A DNA stretch of 64,000 nt from Parcubacteria group bacterium Gr01-1014_13 (GTDB taxonomy: Bacteria; Patescibacteriota; Patescibacteriia; Magasanikbacterales; GWA2-37-8): assembly GCA_007376295.1 (NCBI GenBank), contig VMGB01000001.1, forward strand, positions 413,969 through 477,968, written 5' to 3'. The notes beneath the pieces were generated by a model that worked only from the letters and a program-made list of their open reading frames with translations, did no database searches and was not told where the DNA came from. Position 1 is the first letter of the stretch. Every line of letters begins with the position of its first letter. The position numbers were made by a program, and so were the translations under genes. Positions 3,426 through 56,950 of this stretch are shown here, one piece after another.

Positions 3426-4013
3426 TTACTGGAAAGAACGTTTGGGTTGGCCTGATTGATTGCGCTTATGATGAGCTACAGCTGCCAACGGGATGATTGG
3501 ATCGGAGTGGTGCGGCACAATACTCTCTGGCAATTTACTGATGGGATGCCAATCGTGCCGAAGATCAAGCAATGGTTGCCCAACGAGGTCTACTAGAAAA
3601 ACATTTGAATGCACCGTACCCCTCTCTTCGTGATGTACTGGAAATCTACTCACAAAATGGAATGATTTGATTCCAGTATGGAAGAAATCTTCTTCAAGAC
3701 GTTTGGCAACATCTTGATCATGTTCCCCCTGTCGATATATAGAGCTGGGAGCACACCATTCGTTAGGGTGGGCAATGTCGTCTGGTGGGCGCTTGGTCAG
3801 ATAAACTTCGGTATCTTTACCACTACCACGAATATGCAAGGCTTCGAAAGCGACTGCTGGCTTTAGCCTCGTAAGAGCATTGCACAGCTTGGTTCCCTGA
3901 AACTTTCTCGGGTGAATTAGAGAAAGCAGGTCCGCTAACAACTCTTTGAGTTCGTCGCCGTCGAGAGATTTAGCTTTTTCTAAAATATGCCTTACATTTG
4001 CTGATTTTACCAT
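3426..4013 (-). CDS. Nudix-fold hydrolase-like protein, divergent Nudix box (paralog 3 of 3)
   Basis: The ORF track gives 3426..4061 (211 aa). The predicted promoter (-35 at 4088-4093, -10 at 4065-4070) places the TSS near 4058, so the internal Met (MVKSANV..., 4013) is the likelier start, giving ~196 aa. NEWCAPSSIYRQGEHDQDVAKRLEEDF is Nudix-like. Confidence 0.45.
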   Translation of the reverse strand: MVKSANVRHILEKAKSLDGDELKELLADLLSLIHPRKFQGTKLCNALTRLKPAVAFEALHIRGSGKDTEVYLTKRPPDDIAHPNEWCAPSSIYRQGEHDQDVAKRLEEDFFHTGIKSFHFVSRFPVHHEERGTVHSNVFLVDLVGQPLLDLRHDWHPISKLPESIVPHHSDPIIPLAAVAHHKRNQSGQPKRSFQ

Positions 4014-4064
4014 TCTTTTTTTCCTTTGGCACTTCCTATCCACCGTGGATAGAGAAGACATATC

Positions 4065-4093
4065 AAATTATCATTTATTAACAAAAAAGTCAA
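4065..4093 (-). promoter_or_regulatory. sigma70-type promoter TTGACT-N17-TAATTT (minus strand) overlapping the 7-bp inverted repeat gtcaagg-N4-ccttgac
   Basis: Minus strand reads aaaCCTTGACTTTTTTgttaataaatga TAATTT. The palindrome GTCAAGGtttcCCTTGAC (4089-4106) overlaps the -35 box and is a possible operator. On the plus strand, TTGACC(4102-4107)-N16-TACAAT(4124-4129) reads as a possible divergent or antisense promoter. Confidence 0.4.
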
Positions 4094-4121
4094 GGTTTCC
4101 CTTGACCTAATCCGGTTTTAG

Positions 4122-4754
4122 CTACAATATTTTGCGAGTAGAAATATGTTCATGCTCGATCACATTTCCCGCATCATCAAATAATACCCGCCACGCTTCG
4201 CCTTTTTCCAAATACATAACCCTGCCTTTTTCGTTTTTTAACTCCCTAAGCGACGGCAACGACTTGCCTGGATTCAGCAATTGCCACATTGCAAAAGCGG
4301 TCGGATCGCCGTGGCTAACCACAAACACGGTCTTGCCTTGATATTTGGCGAGGATATCCTTTATCGCCGCCACCATCCGAGCCGTAAAACTTGGCGGTCT
4401 TTCAATGCGCAAATTTTGTAAAGCCGGATGTGTATACGGATCTATGATTTCTGCCAACCAAACAAGGGATCTGCCAAACATGTCCGGCGAATCCGGGTCC
4501 TGTAAACGCGGATCAGGCTCAATTGACAAATTCAAGCCGGGATAATTACTCATAATTTCCGCGGAAGATTGCATGGCCCGCAAAAAATCACTGCTGACAA
4601 CCACGTCCGGTACCACCCCACTCTTACGAAAAATACGGCCAAGCACTCGCATTTTTTCTTTTCCAAATTCGCTTAAGGAAATAGTCCCATCGTAAATAAT
4701 TCCTTTCGGATTTTCCAAATCTCCGTGGCGAATTAAAAAGATAGTGGTTTGCAT
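4122..4754 (-). CDS. histidine phosphatase superfamily protein (phosphoglycerate-mutase-like)
   Basis: 210 aa; N-terminal LIRHGD catalytic RHG motif and a C-terminal SHG motif (VVSHGDPT). Confidence 0.6.
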   Translation of the reverse strand: MQTTIFLIRHGDLENPKGIIYDGTISLSEFGKEKMRVLGRIFRKSGVVPDVVVSSDFLRAMQSSAEIMSNYPGLNLSIEPDPRLQDPDSPDMFGRSLVWLAEIIDPYTHPALQNLRIERPPSFTARMVAAIKDILAKYQGKTVFVVSHGDPTAFAMWQLLNPGKSLPSLRELKNEKGRVMYLEKGEAWRVLFDDAGNVIEHEHISTRKIL

Positions 4755-4760
4755 AAAAAC

Positions 4761-4789
4761 TTTATACCGTAAATAAACGAAAAAGTCAA
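4761..4789 (-). promoter_or_regulatory. sigma70-type promoter TTGACT(4784-4789)-N17-TATAAA(4761-4766), minus strand; predicts a leaderless transcript
   Basis: Minus strand reads taaCCTTGACTTTTTcgtttatttacgg TATAAA, and the start codon sits at 4754, ~7 nt after the -10 box. Confidence 0.45.
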
Positions 4790-4797
4790 GGTTAAAC

Positions 4798-5736
4798 CTA
4801 AAAATTCACCCTCTCTCTTTCTATCACCAGTGGCCGTTCGCGTACTTGGGTGTAAATGGCTCCAATATACTCGCCCAAGATACCAATAAAAAACAACTGA
4901 ATGGAAGAAAAGAAAAAGATACCGATACTAAGCGGTGCTAAGCCGGCTTCAAACCGATCCCAAAAAAGCAGTTTGTAAATTAAATAAACTATACCGACTA
5001 TAAAACTGATAACTGACATGCCAAAACCAATAAAACTGGCCAGACGCAAAGGAATTTTGGAATGATTCACAAAACCAAGCATAGCCAAGTCGTAGAGCGA
5101 ATAAAAATTATTGCTGGTCTTACCTCTTTTTCTGGCTGGCTGAAAATAACTTACTTCGGCGCGATTAAAACCAAGTTCGGTAATTAAACCGCGAAAATAT
5201 GGATATGGATCTTTGAGCGTGCGCAAAACCGCAATAAATTTTTGGTCGTATAGACCAAAACCAGTGAAATTTTTTATTTGCTCAACATCCGATATTTTTT
5301 TTATTAAGTTATAATAAACTTTTCGTATAGCGAACATTATAGCATTCTCTTCACTTTTATTTTTTACTCCCACCACAATAGAACTTCCTTCTTCCCACTT
5401 CTGCAAAAATTCTTTAATTGTCGCTGGCGGATCTTGTAAGTCGGAGGCCATCAGCACCACAGCATCGCCATGCGCTTGCTGCAATCCATAGTATGGAGAA
5501 CGGATATGACCAAAATTTTTGATGTTAACGATAATTTTTACATTATAATCTACGGTAGCCAATTTTTTTAATACCGCCACGGTACTGTCTGTGGAAGCAT
5601 TATCAATAAAAATATGTTCATAGCGATATTGAGGCAGATCGGCAAATACGGCTTTAACCTGACTGTACAATTCTTCCACGTTTAATTCTTCGTTGTAGCA
5701 TGGGGTAACCACGCTAATAAGTTTTTTGTCTGACAT
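4798..5736 (-). CDS. family-2 glycosyltransferase with C-terminal TM helices (polyprenol-phosphate sugar transferase, DPM1/ArnC/GtrB-like)
   Basis: 312 aa; N-terminal VVTPCYNEE and DNASTD motifs (GT-A DxD-like); two C-terminal TM helices. Confidence 0.7.
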   Translation of the reverse strand: MSDKKLISVVTPCYNEELNVEELYSQVKAVFADLPQYRYEHIFIDNASTDSTVAVLKKLATVDYNVKIIVNIKNFGHIRSPYYGLQQAHGDAVVLMASDLQDPPATIKEFLQKWEEGSSIVVGVKNKSEENAIMFAIRKVYYNLIKKISDVEQIKNFTGFGLYDQKFIAVLRTLKDPYPYFRGLITELGFNRAEVSYFQPARKRGKTSNNFYSLYDLAMLGFVNHSKIPLRLASFIGFGMSVISFIVGIVYLIYKLLFWDRFEAGLAPLSIGIFFFSSIQLFFIGILGEYIGAIYTQVRERPLVIERERVNF

Positions 5737-14284: not shown

Positions 14285-15388
14285 CTAAAATGTCAAATAT
14301 CTGGACGCATCCAAATCACCCTTTTTTCTGGCTTTCCAGCAGACAATTATGATCACAATTGCCTCAATGGCAATAAAAACCCCTCCGGCGAAGCTTAAAA
14401 CATATATAAACCGCCTAAACCCGGCTAAAAATAACAAAATCGGCACCGAAATAACCAAAAACTCGGCCAAAATTTTGTTCAGTTTATTGTCCCAAACAAG
14501 ATTTTGTTTCAAAGCAATGCCAGAACCGATAAATCCTGTGGTCATGGCTAAAATAGCAAAAATATTCCCTAAAACCAGAACCCCATCTCCAAATCTAGCA
14601 CCCAAACCAATCGTTGCAATTTCGGAAGTTTGCAAGCCGCTCGACCCGACTACAGCCAAAGCAAAAAGTATGTATACCCCCACCGGGATAAGCGAACCAA
14701 TAATTAAAGCTTTCCTAAAATGGCGCTGACTGCGAGGCAAAAGCGCGTGCGCCTCTACTACAGCCGCTGTACCGTTCAAAGCAAAAAGGATCACGCCATA
14801 TGGCAAAAACATTTTAGTTACATCTGTGTAAATCCAATTTGAAAATTTAAAATCTCTGAAAAGATAAAAAGATAACCCGCAGATTATACTAATAACAATA
14901 AAGCTCAAAACTTTTTCCACGCTTTTTATGGTTTGCAGGCCCCGCCAAACAATAATACTGGCAATGCTCCAAAAAATTACGCTCCAGACGACCGGATTGC
15001 CACCAAACAAAGCCGACAGAGATTGCCCTTCACCGATAATGTAGGCGAGCAATGCGCTATAAGAAGCAAGAATAATAATTACATTAAGAAAATATTTAAC
15101 CCACTTGCCCAAATACTTTCCGGCCAAACCGGGAATTTGCAGAGACTCGTTAGTGCGTACCGCTATCTCGCCCAATACCAAATTTAAAAAAAGCATTATC
15201 AAACCAAGCCCCACAATATAAGCAATGCCTATTTTTAGTCCGACCTGCGCCACTACATAGGGAATACCCAAAACACCGGCGCCGATGGTCATGCCGGTAA
15301 TCATAAAAATCGCATCCGCCATTGAAGCGGCCGGTTTATAAACACCTTGATGCAAAATAATTTTTTTCTCTTCAAGCTGGGTTTGCAT
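14285..15388 (-). CDS. amino-acid permease (aromatic/HAAAP-like transporter family)
   Basis: 367 aa, ~11 TM helices; N-terminal motif FMITGMTIGAGVLGIPY. Confidence 0.5.
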   Translation of the reverse strand: MQTQLEEKKIILHQGVYKPAASMADAIFMITGMTIGAGVLGIPYVVAQVGLKIGIAYIVGLGLIMLFLNLVLGEIAVRTNESLQIPGLAGKYLGKWVKYFLNVIIILASYSALLAYIIGEGQSLSALFGGNPVVWSVIFWSIASIIVWRGLQTIKSVEKVLSFIVISIICGLSFYLFRDFKFSNWIYTDVTKMFLPYGVILFALNGTAAVVEAHALLPRSQRHFRKALIIGSLIPVGVYILFALAVVGSSGLQTSEIATIGLGARFGDGVLVLGNIFAILAMTTGFIGSGIALKQNLVWDNKLNKILAEFLVISVPILLFLAGFRRFIYVLSFAGGVFIAIEAIVIIIVCWKARKKGDLDASRYLTF

Positions 15389-22759: not shown

Positions 22760-22793
22760 CTTTTTCTTCCTTAAGTTCTTTAAAATATTTTAT

Positions 22794-22867
22794 TGGGCGG
22801 TAGCTCAACCTAGAAAGAGTGCCTCGCTAACACCGAGGAAGTAGAGGTTCAATTCCTTTCCGCTCAA
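22794..22867 (+). tRNA. tRNA-like, anticodon AAC (Val) with atypical D-loop
   Basis: Cloverleaf reads TGGGCGG TA GCTC AACCTAGAAA GAGT G CCTCG CTAACAC CGAGG AAGT AGAGG TTCAATT CCTTT CCGCTCA A. It has a T1-A72 pair, a D-loop lacking G18G19 and an A34 anticodon; all three are unusual for bacteria. Confidence 0.35.
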
Positions 22868-22915
22868 CCCCACTTAGCCGGCGTGTTTCATTAAAGAAAC
22901 CACCGGCTTTTTTAT

Positions 22916-49562: not shown

Positions 49563-52538
49563 TTAGATTTGGCTTTTAGTTGAAATTTGATATTTCTTCT
49601 TTCGTTTTTCAAACGCCCTTTCACCGCCCTCAAGTATATTACATACCTGTTCGATAATGCCGTCCTCAAATTGTTCTACCGGCACGTTAGGAATATGTTT
49701 TGCTTGATCTTCAAGAGAGCCTGAACTGTATTCAAGACGCGGGATGCGCTTGCCGTTGTAATTAGCAACAATAATCTGTTCGGCGTCTGTATTTACCACA
49801 AGATTTGGATTATGCGTAACCATGATAATTTGCCTATACTGCTTTCTGTCACGGAAATAATTAATCAAATCTTTGTAAACAGAAAGGTTGTCCAGATTTT
49901 CTTCTGGTTGGTCAATAATTAACGGCCTGTAGTCGCCCTTATCAATCTCTAAAAAGAGCATGAGCAGAATAATACCTTTTTGACCAGGTGATAGAACGTA
50001 CAAATCCGTATCATCAAATTGAAGGGATGAAACAATTTCAAAATTAGTTGGGTCGAAAAGCCAATTATAGAAATCTTCGATACTATAATTCTCTCTTAGC
50101 TGCTCTTCGATTGAAATATTCTCCCCTTCAAACACCGTAAAACTGCGTAATATTTTAGCAAGCTCAGTTTCAAGTACCGTGTTGCTAAAATTATTACGAG
50201 CACATTCATCCCACATAACAGTGAGCGCTGTTTTAAGACTGCTGGTCTCCCTAAAATTTCCTTTACGTGTACGATCAATAATATCTAGGCCGCTCTTGCA
50301 ATGAGGATCCAGCCGGTAATTTATCTGGGCTTCAAAGACAAGTTTTTTATCCGTGTCTGTACCAGCCAAAAGTGATTCTTGGAGTGGTTTATACAACACT
50401 TCCATCTGCACTTTTTCTTCACGCAACAAACCAAAATACGAGCAATAAAAAACCATTCTTTCCTTTTCCAGTCGTTCCTTATCAGGTGCTGATTCGGTTT
50501 TTATTTTAGCCAATTCATTTTGCAATGCCTTAATTGATCCATCAAGCGCAAGCGCAGTTTTCTTTTGTTGTTGATATTTGATTTTGGTTGTCTCGAATGC
50601 TCTGGTTTCTTTTTGTTTTTCTTCAATTCCTCTGTTCAGTGCTTGAAGATTATCAAACACCAGATCCGTAACGGCTACGGCCAGCAAAGCCGCCACATCA
50701 GCCTTCGCACCGTCTTTTAATGTTTGAAGTTTGGCGGCAATTTCATTTTTATTCTGATCAAGTACGGTTTTAATACCGGCTTCGTCCATGCTCACGTCAA
50801 AAATTGAAGTTTCGGAAATTCCGAGGACCGACAAAAGCGCGCCGATTTCTTCACGGTACTCTTTGACCTGGGTCTTGAACACTTTAACTTTTGTTTCAAC
50901 CTGTCCAATTTTATTTAATCGTGATTGAAGTTCAATTATTTTAGTTTCAAATTTTTTCTTTAATTCAGAGAGAGCCACCAATTCTTCTTGGCCTATTTTA
51001 TCTTCGGCAGGAAGCTCTGGCAAACTGTTATTTAAACGATCAAATTCTCTTTTCTTTTCATCAAGCATTTTTTCTTTTTCCGGCAACCCCGCAAGTACAG
51101 CAGACAGGTTGCTTAGTTTTTGGTTAATGTCGCGAATCTTTTTTATCACCTGTTCCTTTTCATACTGAAAACCGCTCAACACTCGCACTCTCAACTCATC
51201 AAAATCAGATGCACCCATGCGCTCTGTTTCATCCAGAGCTTGAAAAATAACATTTTCTATTTGCTTTTGTAATTTCTCGCTATTTTTGTGTGAGCAAAGA
51301 TCTTCAACAACACCTTGTGGCAAATATCGAACAAGGCCTTGATCCTCTGAAAATTCCCCAACTTTAAATTCGGTGGTGGCGCCGTCGGCCCAAACAATCG
51401 ATATTTTTGTACCTTTGATCGGGTTTTTATGCTTGATAGCTTTCTTCAAGAAAGCACCATCAGTTTCGTCCTCACTACCGGCGCCATAAGCAATCGCTTC
51501 TGCCAAAGCAGATTTTCCAGAGCCGCGACCTCCGATTAGAGTAGCTAAATCACGATTTAATTCAAGCTCAAAGTTTTCCGGAAACCATCCATTAGAAGAA
51601 GGGATAGAAATTCGTGAGATGACTTTGTGGTCAGGTTTATAATTAGGTGGTGTGGCGCCAATAAATACACGAGCTTCTGGCTCATTTAAAACTTGCTTCA
51701 AGCCAGCAAAAGAAGGATCCGCTTTTATCCAAAGCATGGTCTGGCCCACACGATCTATCTCATGAGCATCTGACGAGTGAAGGACTAAGCTATTTAATTT
51801 GTTAGCACTGAGGTCTTTACGATTTTCTTCAATCTTTGCTGGATTGTCTAAATTTGTTAGAGAAAAATTTGCAGAATTGATGAGCGTACGTTTTTCAGCG
51901 GCCGACTGATCCCATCTGGACTGGTCCCATTCCGAATATCCAATTGCCGTAACAAACCGACCCTTAAAACAATTTTTCTCTAGTAATTTCTCAATGTCTG
52001 CGCGTTTATATGTAATATTGTCAAAACCAACCTCGAGATCTGGCTTGCTTTGGATGGTATTACCGGCTGGAGCGGCCGCCTTTATTTGCTTCCCGAGTTC
52101 TTCAAGCGACCGTACCGTTGGTGTTTGTTGCCAAACCGTACCATCCTGAATTTTATAGCCTGTGGACAAACAATTAAGAAGTTGGTCGCGGATATCTTGG
52201 ACTGTAACTGACTCATCAAATATTACATGAAAATTGTGACGTTTGGTGTTATGTGCCGTACCACTAAAAGTGTCCAAACGAAATTCAATGTTTGGAATAA
52301 TTAACTCTATATTAGGTATCTCATTTTTCCGTGTTAGTAAATATTCGTAACCATCACAAAATAAGTAATCAGTTACAGCTATTGCTTTGATCTCTGGTGG
52401 TAATGAAGCAAGCTTCTCAACAAAGCTATTCCATACCGCTTCTGTAGGACCACCGTAACTCTGGATAATTGATTTTGGCGTATGAACGTGCAGGTCCCAT
52501 TTCCTCCACTCTGAGCCGCGCGGATAAAGATGTGTCAT
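49563..52538 (-). CDS. PHP-domain phosphoesterase fused to Rad50/SbcC/SMC-like ABC ATPase with long coiled-coil insert (candidate defence or DNA-processing nuclease-ATPase)
   Basis: 991 aa. The N-terminus has WDLHVHTPKS plus the downstream LHSSDAHEIDRVG (PHP HxH...H...DxH metal site). Walker A GGRGSGKSALAEAI lies at ~aa 335. A ~450-aa heptad-rich region follows. The C-terminus has Walker B/D-loop PLIIDQPEENLDN and H-loop MVTHNPN. Confidence 0.65.
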   Translation of the reverse strand: MTHLYPRGSEWRKWDLHVHTPKSIIQSYGGPTEAVWNSFVEKLASLPPEIKAIAVTDYLFCDGYEYLLTRKNEIPNIELIIPNIEFRLDTFSGTAHNTKRHNFHVIFDESVTVQDIRDQLLNCLSTGYKIQDGTVWQQTPTVRSLEELGKQIKAAAPAGNTIQSKPDLEVGFDNITYKRADIEKLLEKNCFKGRFVTAIGYSEWDQSRWDQSAAEKRTLINSANFSLTNLDNPAKIEENRKDLSANKLNSLVLHSSDAHEIDRVGQTMLWIKADPSFAGLKQVLNEPEARVFIGATPPNYKPDHKVISRISIPSSNGWFPENFELELNRDLATLIGGRGSGKSALAEAIAYGAGSEDETDGAFLKKAIKHKNPIKGTKISIVWADGATTEFKVGEFSEDQGLVRYLPQGVVEDLCSHKNSEKLQKQIENVIFQALDETERMGASDFDELRVRVLSGFQYEKEQVIKKIRDINQKLSNLSAVLAGLPEKEKMLDEKKREFDRLNNSLPELPAEDKIGQEELVALSELKKKFETKIIELQSRLNKIGQVETKVKVFKTQVKEYREEIGALLSVLGISETSIFDVSMDEAGIKTVLDQNKNEIAAKLQTLKDGAKADVAALLAVAVTDLVFDNLQALNRGIEEKQKETRAFETTKIKYQQQKKTALALDGSIKALQNELAKIKTESAPDKERLEKERMVFYCSYFGLLREEKVQMEVLYKPLQESLLAGTDTDKKLVFEAQINYRLDPHCKSGLDIIDRTRKGNFRETSSLKTALTVMWDECARNNFSNTVLETELAKILRSFTVFEGENISIEEQLRENYSIEDFYNWLFDPTNFEIVSSLQFDDTDLYVLSPGQKGIILLMLFLEIDKGDYRPLIIDQPEENLDNLSVYKDLINYFRDRKQYRQIIMVTHNPNLVVNTDAEQIIVANYNGKRIPRLEYSSGSLEDQAKHIPNVPVEQFEDGIIEQVCNILEGGERAFEKRKKKYQISTKSQI

Positions 52539-52639
52539 AGATATATAAATTTACGCGTATAGCGTAGCTTAATCGGAATAAAATGACAAGCGATAATCTT
52601 GATTTACAAATCTCTCTATAGTACAATGTATATACAATT

Positions 52640-52795
52640 TATATAACGACCTAAACCCTGCGCAAGCAGGGCATGGTCAAAAAACCAACCAAGGTAGTAA
52701 GCTCTCCGTCCAGAGCACCTTGGTTGGTCGTGGGTCGAAAGATCCGCGGGTGGCGCAAGCCATCGCTGGCGGGGAGCTTTTTGTTTTTAAAATTA
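52640..52795. other. GC-rich structured element (candidate sRNA or cis-regulatory RNA) in the intergenic region between the PHP-ATPase gene and the plus-strand operon
   Basis: The background is AT-rich, but this stretch has a hairpin CCCTGCGCAAGCAGGG (52654-52669), a long stem AACCAACCAAGGT...ACCTTGGTTGG (52685-52735), and the GC-rich CCGCGGGTGGCGCAAGCCATCGCTGGCGGGGAGC before a T-run ending 5 nt before the ATG at 52800. Confidence 0.3.
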
Positions 52796-52799
52796 AATT

Positions 52800-53294
52800 A
52801 TGAACGATCATCTAATTAACGGCTTTGAACACAATTTGATTAAGGGCAAGATAGCCGAAACTATTTTTGAATTAATGTTCCAAGAATCTAAAAAGTTTTC
52901 TGTATTTCACTTTGGCTATGAGTACACCGCCGAATACCTAGCACAATATAATTTAGCATTACCAAAGGAGGTGCTTAGCAATATCCGCCACTCACCTGAT
53001 TTTATTATCGTCACAGAAAATAAAAAGGGTGCTTATTTAGTTGAGGTTAAATACAGAACGCACATTGATAACCAAGAAATGATAGATACAGCTAGACGAC
53101 TTAAGGAACGATGGAACCCATCATATATTTTTGTTATATCTAACGACGGCTTTTATTTTACTCCGGCTAATACCATTATTAACAAAGGTAAGATGGAAAA
53201 ATTAGACAGAAAATGGATCAATAGCGGGCTTCAAACCAAATACTTTAAACTGGTAGAAGATTATCTCTGCCACCACAAGGACAAAAATCTATAA
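52800..53294 (+). CDS. small PD-(D/E)xK nuclease-fold protein (restriction-endonuclease-like), hypothetical
   Basis: 164 aa; motif order E(...IAETIFE)...PDFIIV...AYLVEVKYR fits the D-x(n)-(D/E)xK catalytic core. Confidence 0.4.
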   Translation: MNDHLINGFEHNLIKGKIAETIFELMFQESKKFSVFHFGYEYTAEYLAQYNLALPKEVLSNIRHSPDFIIVTENKKGAYLVEVKYRTHIDNQEMIDTARRLKERWNPSYIFVISNDGFYFTPANTIINKGKMEKLDRKWINSGLQTKYFKLVEDYLCHHKDKNL

Positions 53295-53309
53295 CCAACC
53301 TTCATACCA

Positions 53310-54362
53310 TTGACTCCTTACCTATTTTACCCATATAGTAGTGGCTCTATGGACAAAATAGATCTCAAAAAATATTACATTGAGGAGCATATATTTGAGA
53401 GTTTTTCAGAAAACTCTAGTTTTTTAATTAGCCTTGCCATCTCTCTTTTAAGCGACCGGCTTACAGACCTAGCTTCTTCGGGTTATAAGAAAGGAGAAAA
53501 ATATATACATGATTATAGAAAAGAATTCATACCTGACATGGTTTTTGGAGAACCCTCGCCCACTGATTATCATTTTATAATAATTTTAGATAGAAAATTA
53601 CCTTTAAAAATTAAAGATAACGGAAAAACAAAACTTGCTTTAATGCGGTTACTGAATAACCCTGATTTTATATTAGATATAAATTGGGATCACAGTCGTC
53701 TGGTACGTTTAAAACAAGCTGCAAACGAACCCAAAACAAAAAAACAGATTGATTGGATTCTTAATGAGTTTGTTTATTGTGACGATATCCCCCAATTGCA
53801 AAAAGATGTACAAAAACATTTAAAACGCAACGAGTTGCCAATGATAGATTATATTTTAGAAATAATGGTAATCCAACCAATGATCCAGGAATTATCTAAA
53901 AAATATAAAATACCTACAGAACAAAAACACTTTTTAGAAAGCATTATAGAATACGGAATTGATCATGTCATACAAAATGTATCAAATATAAAAACCGGCT
54001 CATTATCCTATCTTGATTTTTACGGTGGAGTCGTATATTTGCTTAAACCCCACGACGAACGAATCGCTCCACAAATAAAATCGGTTTGGGCCAGCGAAAC
54101 AAACGGGCAACATCTCAAACGCACCGAATCCATTGTTAAATACTTTCAAAAAAAATATCTTCCAATAACCCCATCAACGCCAGCGAATGACACAGATTTA
54201 GATAAGCATTTTTTATTATTTAAACTTGATCGAAATTCAAAATTTAACGATGAAAAAAAGGCGCGGATTATTTTTAATATTCCTGACAATAAACCCTGTG
54301 GAAAAGCTCAGACCAACAAAATTGCCTCAATGAGGCGTAATTTGAAACCCTACTTAAAATAA
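53310..54362 (+). CDS. hypothetical protein
   Basis: 350 aa, AT-rich codon usage, no recognisable motif; same operon as the flanking genes. Confidence 0.4.
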   Translation: MTPYLFYPYSSGSMDKIDLKKYYIEEHIFESFSENSSFLISLAISLLSDRLTDLASSGYKKGEKYIHDYRKEFIPDMVFGEPSPTDYHFIIILDRKLPLKIKDNGKTKLALMRLLNNPDFILDINWDHSRLVRLKQAANEPKTKKQIDWILNEFVYCDDIPQLQKDVQKHLKRNELPMIDYILEIMVIQPMIQELSKKYKIPTEQKHFLESIIEYGIDHVIQNVSNIKTGSLSYLDFYGGVVYLLKPHDERIAPQIKSVWASETNGQHLKRTESIVKYFQKKYLPITPSTPANDTDLDKHFLLFKLDRNSKFNDEKKARIIFNIPDNKPCGKAQTNKIASMRRNLKPYLK

Positions 54363-54467
54363 ATGATATAAAGTAATTTTTTGTATCATACTTTTGGCTT
54401 TACAGAGCCATTTTTTTATTTAAAACTGCATATGTAGCTACACAGTTTAATTATTAACTTAAATTTT

Positions 54468-54824
54468 ATGCCCAACGACAAGTTGGAGAATTACGGCCTT
54501 AACATTAAAGATATCGAGGTCAAAACAAAAATCATTGAGAACCAGTCTCTCAAAGCAATTATCGGTTTAAATTTCGGCCCTTTTACAGTAAAGGGATTCA
54601 GAATTAGTAAATCAAAATACGTACCGGATAGCGGGGAAAAAACTAAAAATGGAGAATTATGGATCGTCCCTCCATCGTACAAGGACAGTGGCGGCAGATA
54701 CCACCCGACCTTCTTCATACCACATAAAGAGCTCTGGCAAGAACTCAAAGATCATATCATGACAGAATATGAAAAAGCGGTGGATGCACACTACAGAAAA
54801 CGACTTAATATGCCCGAATTCTAA
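54468..54824 (+). CDS. SpoVG-like nucleic-acid-binding protein
   Basis: 118 aa; aligns with SpoVG (I.D(I/V)..k....lkAi....f.v.g.r...........ELW(I/F)V(P/A)PS...(D/S)G....P.F...(K/R)....I...I..EY) by recollection of B. subtilis SpoVG. Confidence 0.4.
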   Translation: MPNDKLENYGLNIKDIEVKTKIIENQSLKAIIGLNFGPFTVKGFRISKSKYVPDSGEKTKNGELWIVPPSYKDSGGRYHPTFFIPHKELWQELKDHIMTEYEKAVDAHYRKRLNMPEF

Positions 54825-54960: not shown

Positions 54961-55243
54961 CCATTATCCTCGCCCTGTGGCGGCATCTGTGATGCCGTCC
55001 ATGGGCGGATATAATATTGCACTTAACTTTACTATTACATTATTTGGTTCGTTTCTATGTTGGAAAACAATAAAGGACAATCTGTTTTTTCCAATGAGGT
55101 GATCGTAAACTTCACTGTCTTTTATAATAGTCTCCTCACGGTTAGAAATAGATTGCTTAGGGAAGGATACAGCATAGAGAATGGTAAAATTTTTAAGCCC
55201 GCTGGAAATTTTGATAAGATATGTTATACTCCTGATAAGTATG

Positions 55244-56950
55244 ACCAAAACCAACCAAGGTAATACCTACCTAATCTACGCTCGTAAGAGTACGGATGAT
55301 TCTGAAAATCAAAAAAATTCTATAGACTACCAAGTGGGTGAATGTTTGAGATACTCAAAAACTAATAATCTTGTAATATCTGATTACTCCTTTGAAGGAT
55401 TAAGTAACAACGGTGTAATTAAAGAAAAACATACCGCATATAAAACTTCCGATATCTCCATCAATAAAGATGGTTCTTTTGTGTACCACATTGAACGCCC
55501 AAAATTTAAACAGCTCGTAGACAGTCTAATGAAAAAAGAATTTAAAGGTGTTATCTGTTTGTGTTGGGATCGTATAAGCCGTAATGACCAAGACGGTATT
55601 ATAATTAAAAACCTAATCAAAAATGGCATTGACGTTCGATTTGTCCAAACAAAATATGAAAAGACTAGCTCCGGAGCTTTACACATGGATATAGATGGCA
55701 TGTTCGCGGCACACTACTCTAGAGTAATAAGCGAGAAAGTAAAAGCTGCTTATTCAAAACTTCAAAGCGAGGGAAAATGTACTTACATAGCTCCGATTGG
55801 TTATTTAGATAAGGGTTCAGATAACAAGCCACTGGATTTAGACAGGGCACATATTGTAAAACAAATATTTGAAATGTACTCCGAGGGTGGTTGGAGTTTA
55901 AATCAATTGGCGAAATGGGCAAACCAACAAGGACTAACAACTAAGCCTTCTCGTAGTAAAAGAACTTCTCAAGAAGTAATGTCTGGCGAAGAAAACAATA
56001 AACCAAAGGTCGGTCGTCCTCTCAATGACAAAAGTGTTGAGCTTATTCTTAAAAATCCATTCTACATAGGCAAACTTAAAATTGGCGGCCAAATTATTGA
56101 CGGTATTCATCAGCCCTTAATCAATGTCGGTTTATTTAACAAGGTACAAGAAGTTTTGAAAAGCCGAAATGTAAAGGTCTATTACGTAGATAAAGAATTT
56201 TACACTTTTAGAGGACTGATAACTTGCGATTGTGGCAGATCTTATTCCCCGTACAGAAAGAAAGGTATTGTGTATTATCGTTGTCGTTGTAAAACTGACT
56301 GCACCAGTACCGATACAAACCTCAATGAAAGCGAAATTAATAGGGTTATAAACGATTTGATGGGTCAGATACACTTCAACGACCAAGAGCTCGCCGAAAT
56401 TGAATCTAGGGCAAAATTTGGGCTTCAAGAAGTATCAGATCGTAGAAACACAGAGATGGAAACGTTGAACAAACAAAGACAACGTCTTTTTGATGATTTG
56501 GACTATCTGCAAAACAATAAAATCACACTACTTCGGACAAATGTTTATTCCATGGAGAAAATTAACGACGAAATAAACAGTCTTGAAAGGAGATTAGACG
56601 AAATTGAGGAAAAAATGAAGGCTTACAAAGAAGCGGCCATCGATATGCTGAAGTATGTGCTATCTTTTTCCGAACTTGTAAAAGAGGCTAAGCTATACTA
56701 CGAACACGCACTTGATACTGAAAAAAGGGATATTACCTTATCTGTGTTTTCCGAACTGACTTTCCACAATGGAAGCTTATCTAAATTTAAAGCAAAAGAA
56801 GGCTTTGAAGCCCTCTTTAAAAGACACGACACGATATCTGGCTCCCGGGGTCGGATTCGAACCGACGACCAATTGGTTAACAGCCAACTGCGCTACCGCT
56901 GCGCTACCCGGGAATTTACGACACTAGTATATTTAAAATTTTCGCTTTAG
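55244..56950 (+). CDS. large serine recombinase (resolvase/invertase N-terminal catalytic domain + recombinase domain + zinc ribbon + coiled coil)
   Basis: Catalytic motif YLIYARKSTDDSENQ (Ser nucleophile); zinc ribbon CDCGRSYSPYRKKGIVYYRCRC; C-terminal coiled coil. The track ORF begins at 55181; Met at 55244 is the likelier start. The last ~38 codons are antisense to tRNA-Asn, so the true C-terminus is uncertain. Confidence 0.7.
   Translation, partial: TKTNQGNTYLIYARKSTDDSENQKNSIDYQVGECLRYSKTNNLVISDYSFEGLSNNGVIKEKHTAYKTSDISINKDGSFVYHIERPKFKQLVDSLMKKEFKGVICLCWDRISRNDQDGIIIKNLIKNGIDVRFVQTKYEKTSSGALHMDIDGMFAAHYSRVISEKVKAAYSKLQSEGKCTYIAPIGYLDKGSDNKPLDLDRAHIVKQIFEMYSEGGWSLNQLAKWANQQGLTTKPSRSKRTSQEVMSGEENNKPKVGRPLNDKSVELILKNPFYIGKLKIGGQIIDGIHQPLINVGLFNKVQEVLKSRNVKVYYVDKEFYTFRGLITCDCGRSYSPYRKKGIVYYRCRCKTDCTSTDTNLNESEINRVINDLMGQIHFNDQELAEIESRAKFGLQEVSDRRNTEMETLNKQRQRLFDDLDYLQNNKITLLRTNVYSMEKINDEINSLERRLDEIEEKMKAYKEAAIDMLKYVLSFSELVKEAKLYYEHALDTEKRDITLSVFSELTFHNGSLSKFKAKEGFEALFKRHDTISGSRGRIRTDDQLVNSQLRYRCATREFTTLVYLKFSL
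56838..56912 (-). tRNA. tRNA-Asn (anticodon GTT), CCA encoded
   Basis: The reverse complement reads TCCCGGG TA GCGC AGCGGTA GCGC A GTTGG CTGTTAA CCAAT TGGTC GTCGG TTCGAAT CCGAC CCCGGGA G CCA. Confidence 0.8.

Follow-up and report, generated by a model that had tools for sequence, protein, structure and literature searches.

What is the role of a single polypeptide that joins a domain of the polymerase and histidinol phosphatase (PHP) kind to an ATP-binding cassette (ABC) ATPase of the SMC/Rad50 type, and how did its gene come to lie in the genome of a bacterium of the candidate phyla radiation (CPR)? The question is raised by a gene in a 64,000 nucleotide (nt) stretch of a metagenome-assembled genome of Parcubacteria group bacterium Gr01-1014_13 (contig VMGB01000001.1, positions 413,969-477,968 of the forward strand), referred to below as the window. 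An exact-sequence look-up found the protein as GenBank TSC85095.1, where it is named only 'DNA repair ATPase'. We conclude that it is, almost beyond doubt, a PHP-SMC fusion of the TrlF family, and we consider it probable, by analogy with the related anti-phage protein Ppl, that it is a defence nuclease acting broadly as Ppl does. A preliminary description of this DNA, made from the sequence, had placed a 991 amino acid (aa) open reading frame (ORF) at this site and had named motifs within it (HVHT, H, DxH, Walker A, Walker B/D-loop and H-loop). The ORF is indeed present, with an ATG start on the minus strand, and all of these motifs are found in the protein. The gene and its parts are listed here, with gene and feature coordinates given as window positions and aa positions according to full protein numbering.

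49563..52538, minus strand: TrlF-family gene (PHP plus SMC/Rad50-like ABC ATPase), a single ORF of 991 aa with an ATG start
51639..52538, minus strand: PHP domain, aa 1-300
52476-52499, minus strand: candidate PHP metal ligands D15, H17 and H19
52275-52295 (E85) and 52218-52235 (H104), minus strand: candidate PHP metal ligands E85 and H104, together with D57
51759-51782, minus strand: candidate PHP metal ligands D257 and H259 (D257-A-H259)
51219..51638, minus strand: N-terminal lobe of the ABC head, aa 301-440, from motif positions, invariant columns and PDB profile matches to the Walker A regions of Rad50 and SMC proteins
51510-51533, minus strand: Walker A, GGRGSGKS, aa 336-343
aa 405-412, minus strand: Q-loop region, YLPQGVVE
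50346..51218, minus strand: antiparallel coiled-coil arm and helical apex, aa 441-731, from model secondary structure, Foldseek and Cys positions
49566..50345, minus strand: C-terminal lobe of the ABC head and tail, aa 732-991, from profile matches to Rad50 (5f3w) and AriA (8v46)
49974-49994, minus strand: ABC signature, LSPGQKG, aa 849-855
49890-49922, minus strand: Walker B/D-loop, LIIDQPEENLD, aa 873-883; Q877 takes the place that the catalytic Glu usually occupies
49803-49823, minus strand: H-loop, VTHN, aa 907-910
49611-49631, minus strand: conserved EGGERAF tail

The family assignment comes from the NCBIfam model NF045780 (TrlF family AAA-like ATPase), which the window protein matches at 567.6 bits (cutoff 350; E 8e-170), with aa 7-984 aligned to positions 1-944 of the 944 in the profile; the related Spaf_1101 model gave 168 bits (cutoff 475). 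The protein is a new member of an already named family, and not a new kind of system. Alignments with 28 homologs of 47-85% identity show the PHP and ATPase motif residues listed above to be invariant or nearly so. The TrlFs of enterobacterial plasmids are about 880 aa long and about 30% identical to the window protein in the conserved blocks.

A full-length structure model of the protein (pLDDT 83.5) displays two ABC-head lobes joined by long helical arms (approximately aa 446-572 and 650-724) and a 77 aa helical apex (aa 572-648). The best PDB matches of the model found by Foldseek were the heads, with their coiled coils, of SMC, Rad50, JetC, MukB and LmuB (E 1.6e-10 to about 1e-5), and Pfam SMC_N matches aa 320-919 at 42.5 bits (cutoff 40). 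The protein carries an ATPase head of the ABC/SMC type into which a helical coiled coil is inserted, much as the preliminary description had proposed, but the coiled coil is shorter than the 450 or so aa estimated there: about 505 aa separate the Walker A motif from the signature, and the coiled coil proper accounts for about 290 of them. The same source had raised the question of a zinc hook at the apex of the coiled coil. There is no CxxC motif there and, since no Cys occurs between aa 416 and 698, no zinc hook.

The N-terminal domain has a PHP fold with conserved HxH, E, H and DxH residues, the HVHT motif being H17-V-H19-T, and the suggestion of an N-terminal PHP phosphoesterase is supported by this fold and these motifs. 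Both a PHP fold and a coiled coil are present, and the protein is neither a different fold at its N-terminus nor a generic AAA+ ATPase. Stand-alone PHP proteins (EndoQ, RNase AM/YciV, TM0559, PsfC and the PHP of Pol III alpha, PolC and PolX) are 12-19% identical to the window domain, a relationship that sequence profiles miss; unlike them, the window domain is fused to an ATPase, and its ligand set appears reduced or altered, with D57 replacing a His. Single-sequence and profile searches of PDB sequences with the N-terminus returned nothing beyond coiled-coil noise, and its identity as a PHP domain is carried by the modelled fold and the motifs alone.

The relative with the most bearing on function is Ppl, a single-gene anti-phage system with PHP and ATPase domains (PMC11482910). 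A defence protein of this type, possibly named Ppl, had been mentioned in the preliminary description; this was correct and Ppl is a colinear homolog, but the window protein belongs to its sister family, TrlF. When compared by BLASTP with Ppl of E. coli (WP_015059139.1, plasmid pMS6192B), the two proteins match from the start of the PHP domain to Walker A (aa 8-349 on 3-303, E 2e-10) and again from the signature to the C-terminus (aa 845-982 on 770-888, E 2e-16; hhalign probability 99.6%), the C-terminal lobe and tail forming the block that is best conserved between them. In both, the PHP nuclease is N-terminal and the ABC-type NTPase comes after it, and they have in common the HxHTP, E, H and SDAH motifs, a G-RGSGKS Walker A, a DQPE-DLD Walker B/D-loop and an EGGE-AF tail. 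When the window protein was aligned with three distant TrlFs, a TrlF of an IncC plasmid and Ppl, residues H17, H19, E85, H104 and D257 were invariant. Given the colinear matches and the common invariant residues, TrlF and Ppl are sister families sharing a single architecture and a single catalytic core. Each occurs as a single gene, on plasmids and in defence islands. They differ in that the window protein is 100 aa longer, with a middle region that does not align and an identity of only 23-32%, and in that an anti-phage activity has been demonstrated, and a mechanism reported, for Ppl and not for TrlF.

According to a 2026 review, Ppl is a 3'-5' exonuclease of single-stranded DNA, and its activation has two requirements: the lifting of nucleoside triphosphate (NTP) inhibition through the depletion of nucleotides by the phage, and 3'-OH ends produced by phage homing endonucleases (PMC12904381). 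The primary report is that of Xu et al. (Mol Cell 2026), as cited in PMC13434339. Because the architecture and catalytic residues are common to both families, a Ppl-like mode of action is considered the most likely for TrlF. The window protein would then be a stand-alone nuclease directed against phages or other mobile DNA, in which the binding of NTP at the ATPase heads, and possibly also at the PHP site, would hold the enzyme off. Nucleotide depletion driven by infection, together with free 3'-OH DNA ends, would release the PHP domain, and the released metal-dependent exonuclease would degrade DNA and so halt phage replication. The metal centre is probably made up of H17, H19, E85, H104, D257 and H259, and the coiled coil would probably mediate dimerisation and the clamping of DNA, as in SMC-like defence complexes. 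The DQPE form of Walker B puts Gln where the catalytic Glu canonically stands; it does not vary within the family and recurs in Ppl (LLLDQPEDDLD) and in AriA of PARIS. In other ABC ATPases, replacement of the catalytic Glu by Gln traps the ATP-bound state. The motif may point to a nucleotide site that is slow and sensor-like, as opposed to a motor.

A number of observations weigh against this view of the protein as a Ppl-like defence nuclease. It scores 117.2 bits with the NCBIfam model for Ppl (NF042955), far below the cutoff of 1000 and with its best stretch at aa 843-981, and the PADLOC search that had been proposed for this locus returned Ppl (PDLC02208) as the best match but a partial one (88.9 bits); as the Ppl models failed, transfer of the mechanism rests on 23-32% identity. 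H259 is substituted in at least one plasmid TrlF in the alignment described above. Of the Pfam families expected for the two halves, SMC_N is above its cutoff but PF02811 (PHP) was not matched by the N-terminus, where PHP_C alone appeared, at E = 0.13. The gene has a GC content of 0.38-0.41, equal to the window average and not atypical for the genome, and the borders of an island enclosing it could not be defined, the left border not being located. We know of no experimental phage system for CPR bacteria in which the function could be tested, and our literature search found no experiment showing phage protection by any protein of the TrlF family. The name itself comes from a temperature-restriction locus of Photorhabdus laumondii, trlR-trlF-trlG, which causes growth arrest at 36 C (PMC7554251). 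In that study, the sole experimental paper on the namesake locus, all suppressor mutations lay in trlG and none in trlF, so the part played there by TrlF is left undecided by the paper.

The Photorhabdus locus also bears on the possibility that TrlF works as part of a multi-gene system, either with a TrlG-type effector (AlbA_2/HATPase_c_4, annotated 'RNA-binding domain-containing protein') or as an accessory of restriction-modification (R-M), in which case the window copy would be an orphan with reduced or different activity. Photorhabdus TrlF belongs to the same family as the window protein by the curated NCBI model NF045780, and is encoded in an operon with the small regulator TrlR and with TrlG (AlbA_2 plus HATPase_c_4), the gene to which the growth-arrest phenotype maps (PMC7554251). 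A comparable arrangement is seen on a Klebsiella IncC plasmid (NZ_CP079626.1, 1-10351; locus L083), where, within a type I R-M operon, the trlF gene overlaps one for an 'RNA-binding domain-containing protein'; the operon reads HsdR, TrlF, RNA-binding protein (probably TrlG-like), HsdS, AAA ATPase and HsdM, and the same pair of TrlF and RNA-binding protein occurs on a Pseudomonas plasmid. The IncC arrangement suggests that some TrlF clades work jointly with R-M systems. The wider picture was taken from a survey of 80 species loci, in which all ORFs were clustered and the same-strand neighbours were scanned in batch against Pfam. ResIII-type restriction/helicase proteins occupy 7 of the 42 same-strand upstream positions, and in a Saccharibacteria locus (L005) a gene for a PD-(D/E)XK nuclease follows trlF after 2 nt. 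Against these stand the absence of any conserved operon partner, TrlG-like or other, with no neighbour cluster present at more than 9 of the 80 loci and none consistently adjacent, and the absence of AlbA_2 and HATPase_c_4 from the frequent neighbour families. The genes adjoining trlF vary in size and orientation. In the window its neighbours are MgtE, a LOOT RNA and a TnsA-like ORF, with neither TrlR nor TrlG. MgtE lies directly downstream on the same strand, across a 136 nt gap containing a promoter-like site of its own, although such sites are a weak hint at most, as a promoter and terminator scan around the trlF gene gave no enrichment over shuffled sequence; the LOOT RNA on the other side is divergent. 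Since the sister protein Ppl also functions as a single gene, we think it unlikely that TrlF depends on partners in this way, and retain the stand-alone, Ppl-like nuclease as the better description.

TrlF is widely and unevenly distributed. Among the candidates scored there were 2,992 proteins at E <= 1e-5, a library clustered at 50% identity held 1,782 representatives at E <= 1e-30, and at least 590 species genomes contain a relative. Proteins with 65-85% identity to the window protein are found in Parcubacteria, Saccharibacteria, Woesebacteria, Omnitrophota, WOR-3, Ignavibacteria, Zixibacteria and Rhizobiales, and such identity across phyla points to horizontal transfer. In RefSeq, 'TrlF family AAA-like ATPase' is annotated on many plasmids, most of them conjugative; these copies, along with those near serine recombinases and integrases, associate the family with mobile elements, a link that the preliminary description had proposed to examine. 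Phage records are a minor source, with matches in 7 of 50,697, one of them over most of its length. This sole near-full-length match is in a 22 kb record of Microcystis phage Mwe-JY31 (PP438423.1, 16105-18786), where the TrlF-like protein (66% query coverage, 30% identity) is annotated as hypothetical.

The recurrent neighbours of trlF include R-M and nuclease genes (type I HsdM/S/R, type III Mod, ResIII, BsuBI/PstI, Mrr and MmeI/Eco57I) as well as tyrosine integrases, large serine recombinases, AbiEii, HipA, Fic, KAP NTPase and UvrD helicases. A clear example is the TrlF of L005, on a Saccharibacteria chromosome, which is 74% identical to the window protein and lies inside an island with the order Dam methylase, LOOT RNA, reverse transcriptase, Fic, RadC, a Dcm/R.HinP1I pair, Ymh and TrlF; next come the PD-(D/E)XK nuclease and a CI/LexA-like repressor, and then a serine recombinase and a tRNA. 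On long contigs, the four homologs closest to the window protein (79-82% identity) are found in four unrelated contexts, none of them adjoining MgtE: after a type I R-M operon, beside a diversity-generating retroelement (DGR) and tyrosine integrase, with a serine recombinase 3 kb away, and abutting another serine recombinase. Patchy occurrence across phyla, carriage on plasmids, the lack of a partner and the recurrent neighbours listed above together make up a genomic behaviour that is typical of defence genes. Two observations on neighbours may be added. In L245, a DGR-like pair (RVT_1 plus bAvd; 3816-5200) is situated 2 kb from the trlF gene, and in L246 a Pfam Tad4 match (14692-15042) occurs 5 kb from trlF in a prophage-like region with a serine recombinase and a LOOT-like RNA. 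Tad4 is a family named for an anti-Thoeris protein.

These distributions also decide how far the GenBank name 'DNA repair ATPase' can be followed. It implies a housekeeping role in double-strand-break repair, with TrlF as an analogue of SbcCD or Mre11-Rad50 in which the PHP domain takes the place of the Mre11 nuclease. As in Rad50, SbcC and SMC proteins, a long antiparallel coiled coil does divide the ABC head of the ATPase, and the motifs follow one another in the same way (Walker A, Q-loop, signature, Walker B, D-loop, H-loop); the best PDB profile match of the protein is Rad50 (5f3w), the Foldseek matches include Mre11-Rad50 complexes, the PHP domains of PolX, Pol III and EndoQ are nucleases of proofreading or repair, and the GC content of the gene is like that of the rest of the genome. 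In contrast to Rad50 and SMC proteins, it has no zinc hook or hinge domain, a much shorter coiled coil and a Gln at the position of the catalytic Glu, and it scores only 12.9 bits with the NCBIfam Rad50 model (PRK03918; cutoff 700). Unlike Rad50 and SbcC, it also lacks a separate Mre11/SbcD partner, its nuclease being fused and of a different fold (PHP), and no calcineurin-type partner of this kind is encoded by the adjacent genes (MgtE and the TnsA-like ORF). The picture of an SbcCD complex collapsed into one polypeptide, which the preliminary description had drawn, is an analogy and does not describe a relationship. The gene is neither syntenic nor core: a conserved position was seen neither across the 80 species loci nor among the four closest homologs, and the adjacency to MgtE is never repeated. 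With this missing synteny, the patchy distribution at 65-85% identity across phyla, the abundant plasmid copies and neighbourhoods that are defence islands, a housekeeping role in repair is contradicted and largely refuted, and we regard it as very improbable.

Among defence systems, the ATPase and coiled coil have LmuB of Lamassu (E 2e-7) and JetC of Wadjet (E 5e-10) among their best structural matches in the PDB, and these are likewise genes of defence islands. Lamassu and Wadjet are built from several subunits, the nuclease and kleisin-like ones being separate, whereas in TrlF one polypeptide includes the PHP nuclease and no partner is conserved. The C-terminal ABC lobe also resembles the OLD-family/AAA_15-AAA_21 ATPases GajA, AriA and PtuA, and the other PADLOC matches of the window protein were to the ATPases of PARIS, Gabija and Septu. 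AriA of PARIS shares the DQPE Walker B (PDB 8v46 profile match; PADLOC AriA 39 bits), and the GajA matches (18-25 bits) were confined to the Walker A and ABC C-lobe regions. In GajA, AriA and PtuA the nuclease (TOPRIM or HNH) is C-terminal or separate and a long coiled coil is lacking; in TrlF the PHP domain is N-terminal and Pfam gives no match to TOPRIM, an order of domains inverse to that of the OLD family, as had been pointed out.

The surroundings of the gene in the window bear on how it arrived there. On the side of its start codon the following features were found.

52648..52764, plus strand: LOOT RNA (Rfam RF03000; cmscan 97.9 bits against a gathering threshold of 46.4, model positions 1-121 of 121)
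52800-53294, plus strand: TnsA-like/NERD-like endonuclease ORF of 164 aa (Pfam Tn7_TnsA-like_N 26.9 bits, cutoff 26.5)
53310-54362, plus strand: ORF of 350 aa with no family match
54468-54824, plus strand: SpoVG-like ORF of 118 aa (SpoVG 25.4 bits, below cutoff)
55241..56950, plus strand: large serine recombinase (Pfam Resolvase 63.3, Recombinase 58.9 and Zn_ribbon_recom 20.1 bits)
56839..56913, minus strand: tRNA-Asn (GTT), from ARAGORN (Rfam tRNA 71.5 bits)

The LOOT RNA is divergent from trlF, lies 110 nt from its start codon and marks where the recombinase-bearing segment has its edge. About 20 nt upstream of the RNA there is a promoter-like site (TTGATT-17-TACAAT, 52599-52627). The three ORFs at 52800..54824 had no PADLOC or PHROG matches. 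The probable start of the recombinase is the ATG at 55241, the mechanical ORF start being at 55181, and its 3' end overlaps the tRNA-Asn on the opposite strand; recombinase and tRNA-Asn are 2.7 kb from the trlF gene. The tRNA-Asn is likely to be the integration target of the recombinase-bearing segment. The 3' end of the recombinase ORF runs antisense across a tRNA both in the window (56839-56950, tRNA-Asn) and in L005 (18152-18335), and the recombinase of L166 ends in a similar tRNA-like peptide, which suggests that these CPR elements use tRNA genes as integration sites, the recombinase gene running on into the tRNA. Elsewhere in the window, at 22793-22870 on the plus strand, ARAGORN finds a tRNA-Val of 78 nt with the anticodon AAC (Rfam tRNA 55.5 bits), an anticodon that is unusual for bacteria.

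The preliminary description had placed the gene in an island of mixed composition beside a serine recombinase and tRNA-Asn. Both of these are present at the distance given, but the drop in GC content (to 0.32-0.35) is limited to 53-56 kb and trlF itself is at the window average. A search for att-type direct repeats around the recombinase segment or trlF gave nothing convincing except the repeat of a LOOT arm described below. The only other contig with the exact trlF sequence (L081, a short Logan contig from the same organism) ends 16 nt after LOOT, its position 1 equalling about window position 52780, and so supplies no island-free allele for comparison. This end coincides with the start of the low-GC TnsA-like/recombinase segment and would fit either a strain-variable junction or a repeat there. 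The trlF gene borders a small serine-recombinase integrative segment at tRNA-Asn, and placement inside that segment could not be shown. In this Parcubacteria genome the gene is best seen as horizontally acquired defence cargo.

Proximity to an integrative segment might alternatively mean that TrlF serves the mobile element itself, through the processing of DNA ends in excision, replication or packaging, or through the exclusion of competing elements and plasmids, as Wadjet and Lamassu act on foreign DNA topology. In CPR loci, trlF is found near large serine recombinases in the window and in L003, L005, L246 and L247; LOOT RNAs are within 10 kb at 4 of the 10 loci with a close TrlF. The many copies on conjugative plasmids, the gene in the Microcystis phage record and the resemblance of the fold to JetC and LmuB, which are SMC-like parts of anti-plasmid and anti-phage systems, would all suit such a role. 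In the opposite direction, trlF lies within 6 kb in only 1 of 59 LOOT-bearing loci, so that it appears as occasional cargo and not as a core gene of the element, phage records match as rarely as noted above, and its neighbours are mainly defence genes of the host type. We hold service to the element to be improbable, and return to the defence nuclease carried as cargo as the preferred reading.

LOOT (RF03000) is, to our knowledge, an Rfam family with no assigned function. The main text of the paper that reported its discovery does not discuss it. LOOT was considered as a TrlF-specific partner, either a guide or a regulator, and this was rejected: it is transcribed away from trlF, its loci rarely include trlF (the 1 of 59 given above), and it is missing from 6 of the 10 close-TrlF loci. 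To examine the RNA in its own right, a covariance model was built from the window and L005 copies, and candidate loci were drawn by a loose pattern from viral and metagenome collections. The model confirmed 57 further LOOT RNAs, 8 of them in IMG/VR viral contigs. For the 59 LOOT-bearing loci (among L084-L203), gene context was read within 6 kb. Large serine recombinases occur at 17 loci, at 4 of which they are directly adjacent, a DNA methylase at 13, reverse transcriptases at 5, and terminase small and large subunits at 9 loci each (phrog_38, 250 bits). These recombinase, methylase, terminase and reverse transcriptase neighbours indicate that LOOT is an RNA of phages and prophages. In L005, a second, divergent LOOT-like element with a terminator (5400-5490, minus strand) lies beside the reverse transcriptase gene (4341-5390).

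LOOT has a long hairpin of variable sequence, and at 7 of 53 loci an A-run together with the 5' arm of this hairpin is repeated downstream (at least 14 nt, with no more than one mismatch), compared with 0 loci for each of the controls (upstream flank, reversed arm, and arms paired with other loci). Loci with an arm copy include L127, L131, L134, L137, L173, L174 and L192. Arm copies of at least 12 nt were found at 11 loci, and at 10 of these the copy starts 34-47 nt past the RNA, after a terminator-like hairpin; its end lies 0-7 nt ahead of the next ORF's ATG, and that ORF often specifies a small membrane protein. The sequence of the copy varies from locus to locus and so covaries with the hairpin. 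In the window, the arm at 52681-52699 is copied at 55247-55265 (18 of 19 nt agree, and 100 shuffles gave no chance match), where it covers codons 3-8 of the serine recombinase and does not precede the next ORF; this repeat between arm and recombinase start does not recur in L005. As the copy is positioned at a start codon, the 3' arm of LOOT is complementary to a translation-initiation region. The pattern suggests alternative pairing in cis or antisense repression in trans, and is a lead from sequence comparison, not a demonstration.

Taken together with the TrlF results, this allows a broader proposal, one we put forward tentatively and consider possible but doubtful: that TrlFs form a distinct branch of PHP-SMC defence nucleases which in CPR bacteria travel as cargo on or beside prophage-like elements with a serine recombinase and LOOT, and that LOOT is an antisense-type regulator of a nearby gene of the element, in this case the recombinase. 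If this is true, LOOT could control the excision or integration of an element that borders a defence gene, and would have a first function for RF03000. The copy of the arm at the start of a neighbouring gene makes the function of this orphan family directly testable. The LOOT observation is the less expected result of this locus, and it may be the one of more basic interest.

For TrlF itself, the window provides a full-length example from the CPR (Parcubacteria), where defence systems are poorly charted. The likeness of TrlF to Ppl supports the re-annotation of several thousand TrlF proteins as candidate Ppl-like defence nucleases, which would cover many that are carried on clinical plasmids of the IncC and IncF types, and makes TrlF an obvious target for defence-system screens.

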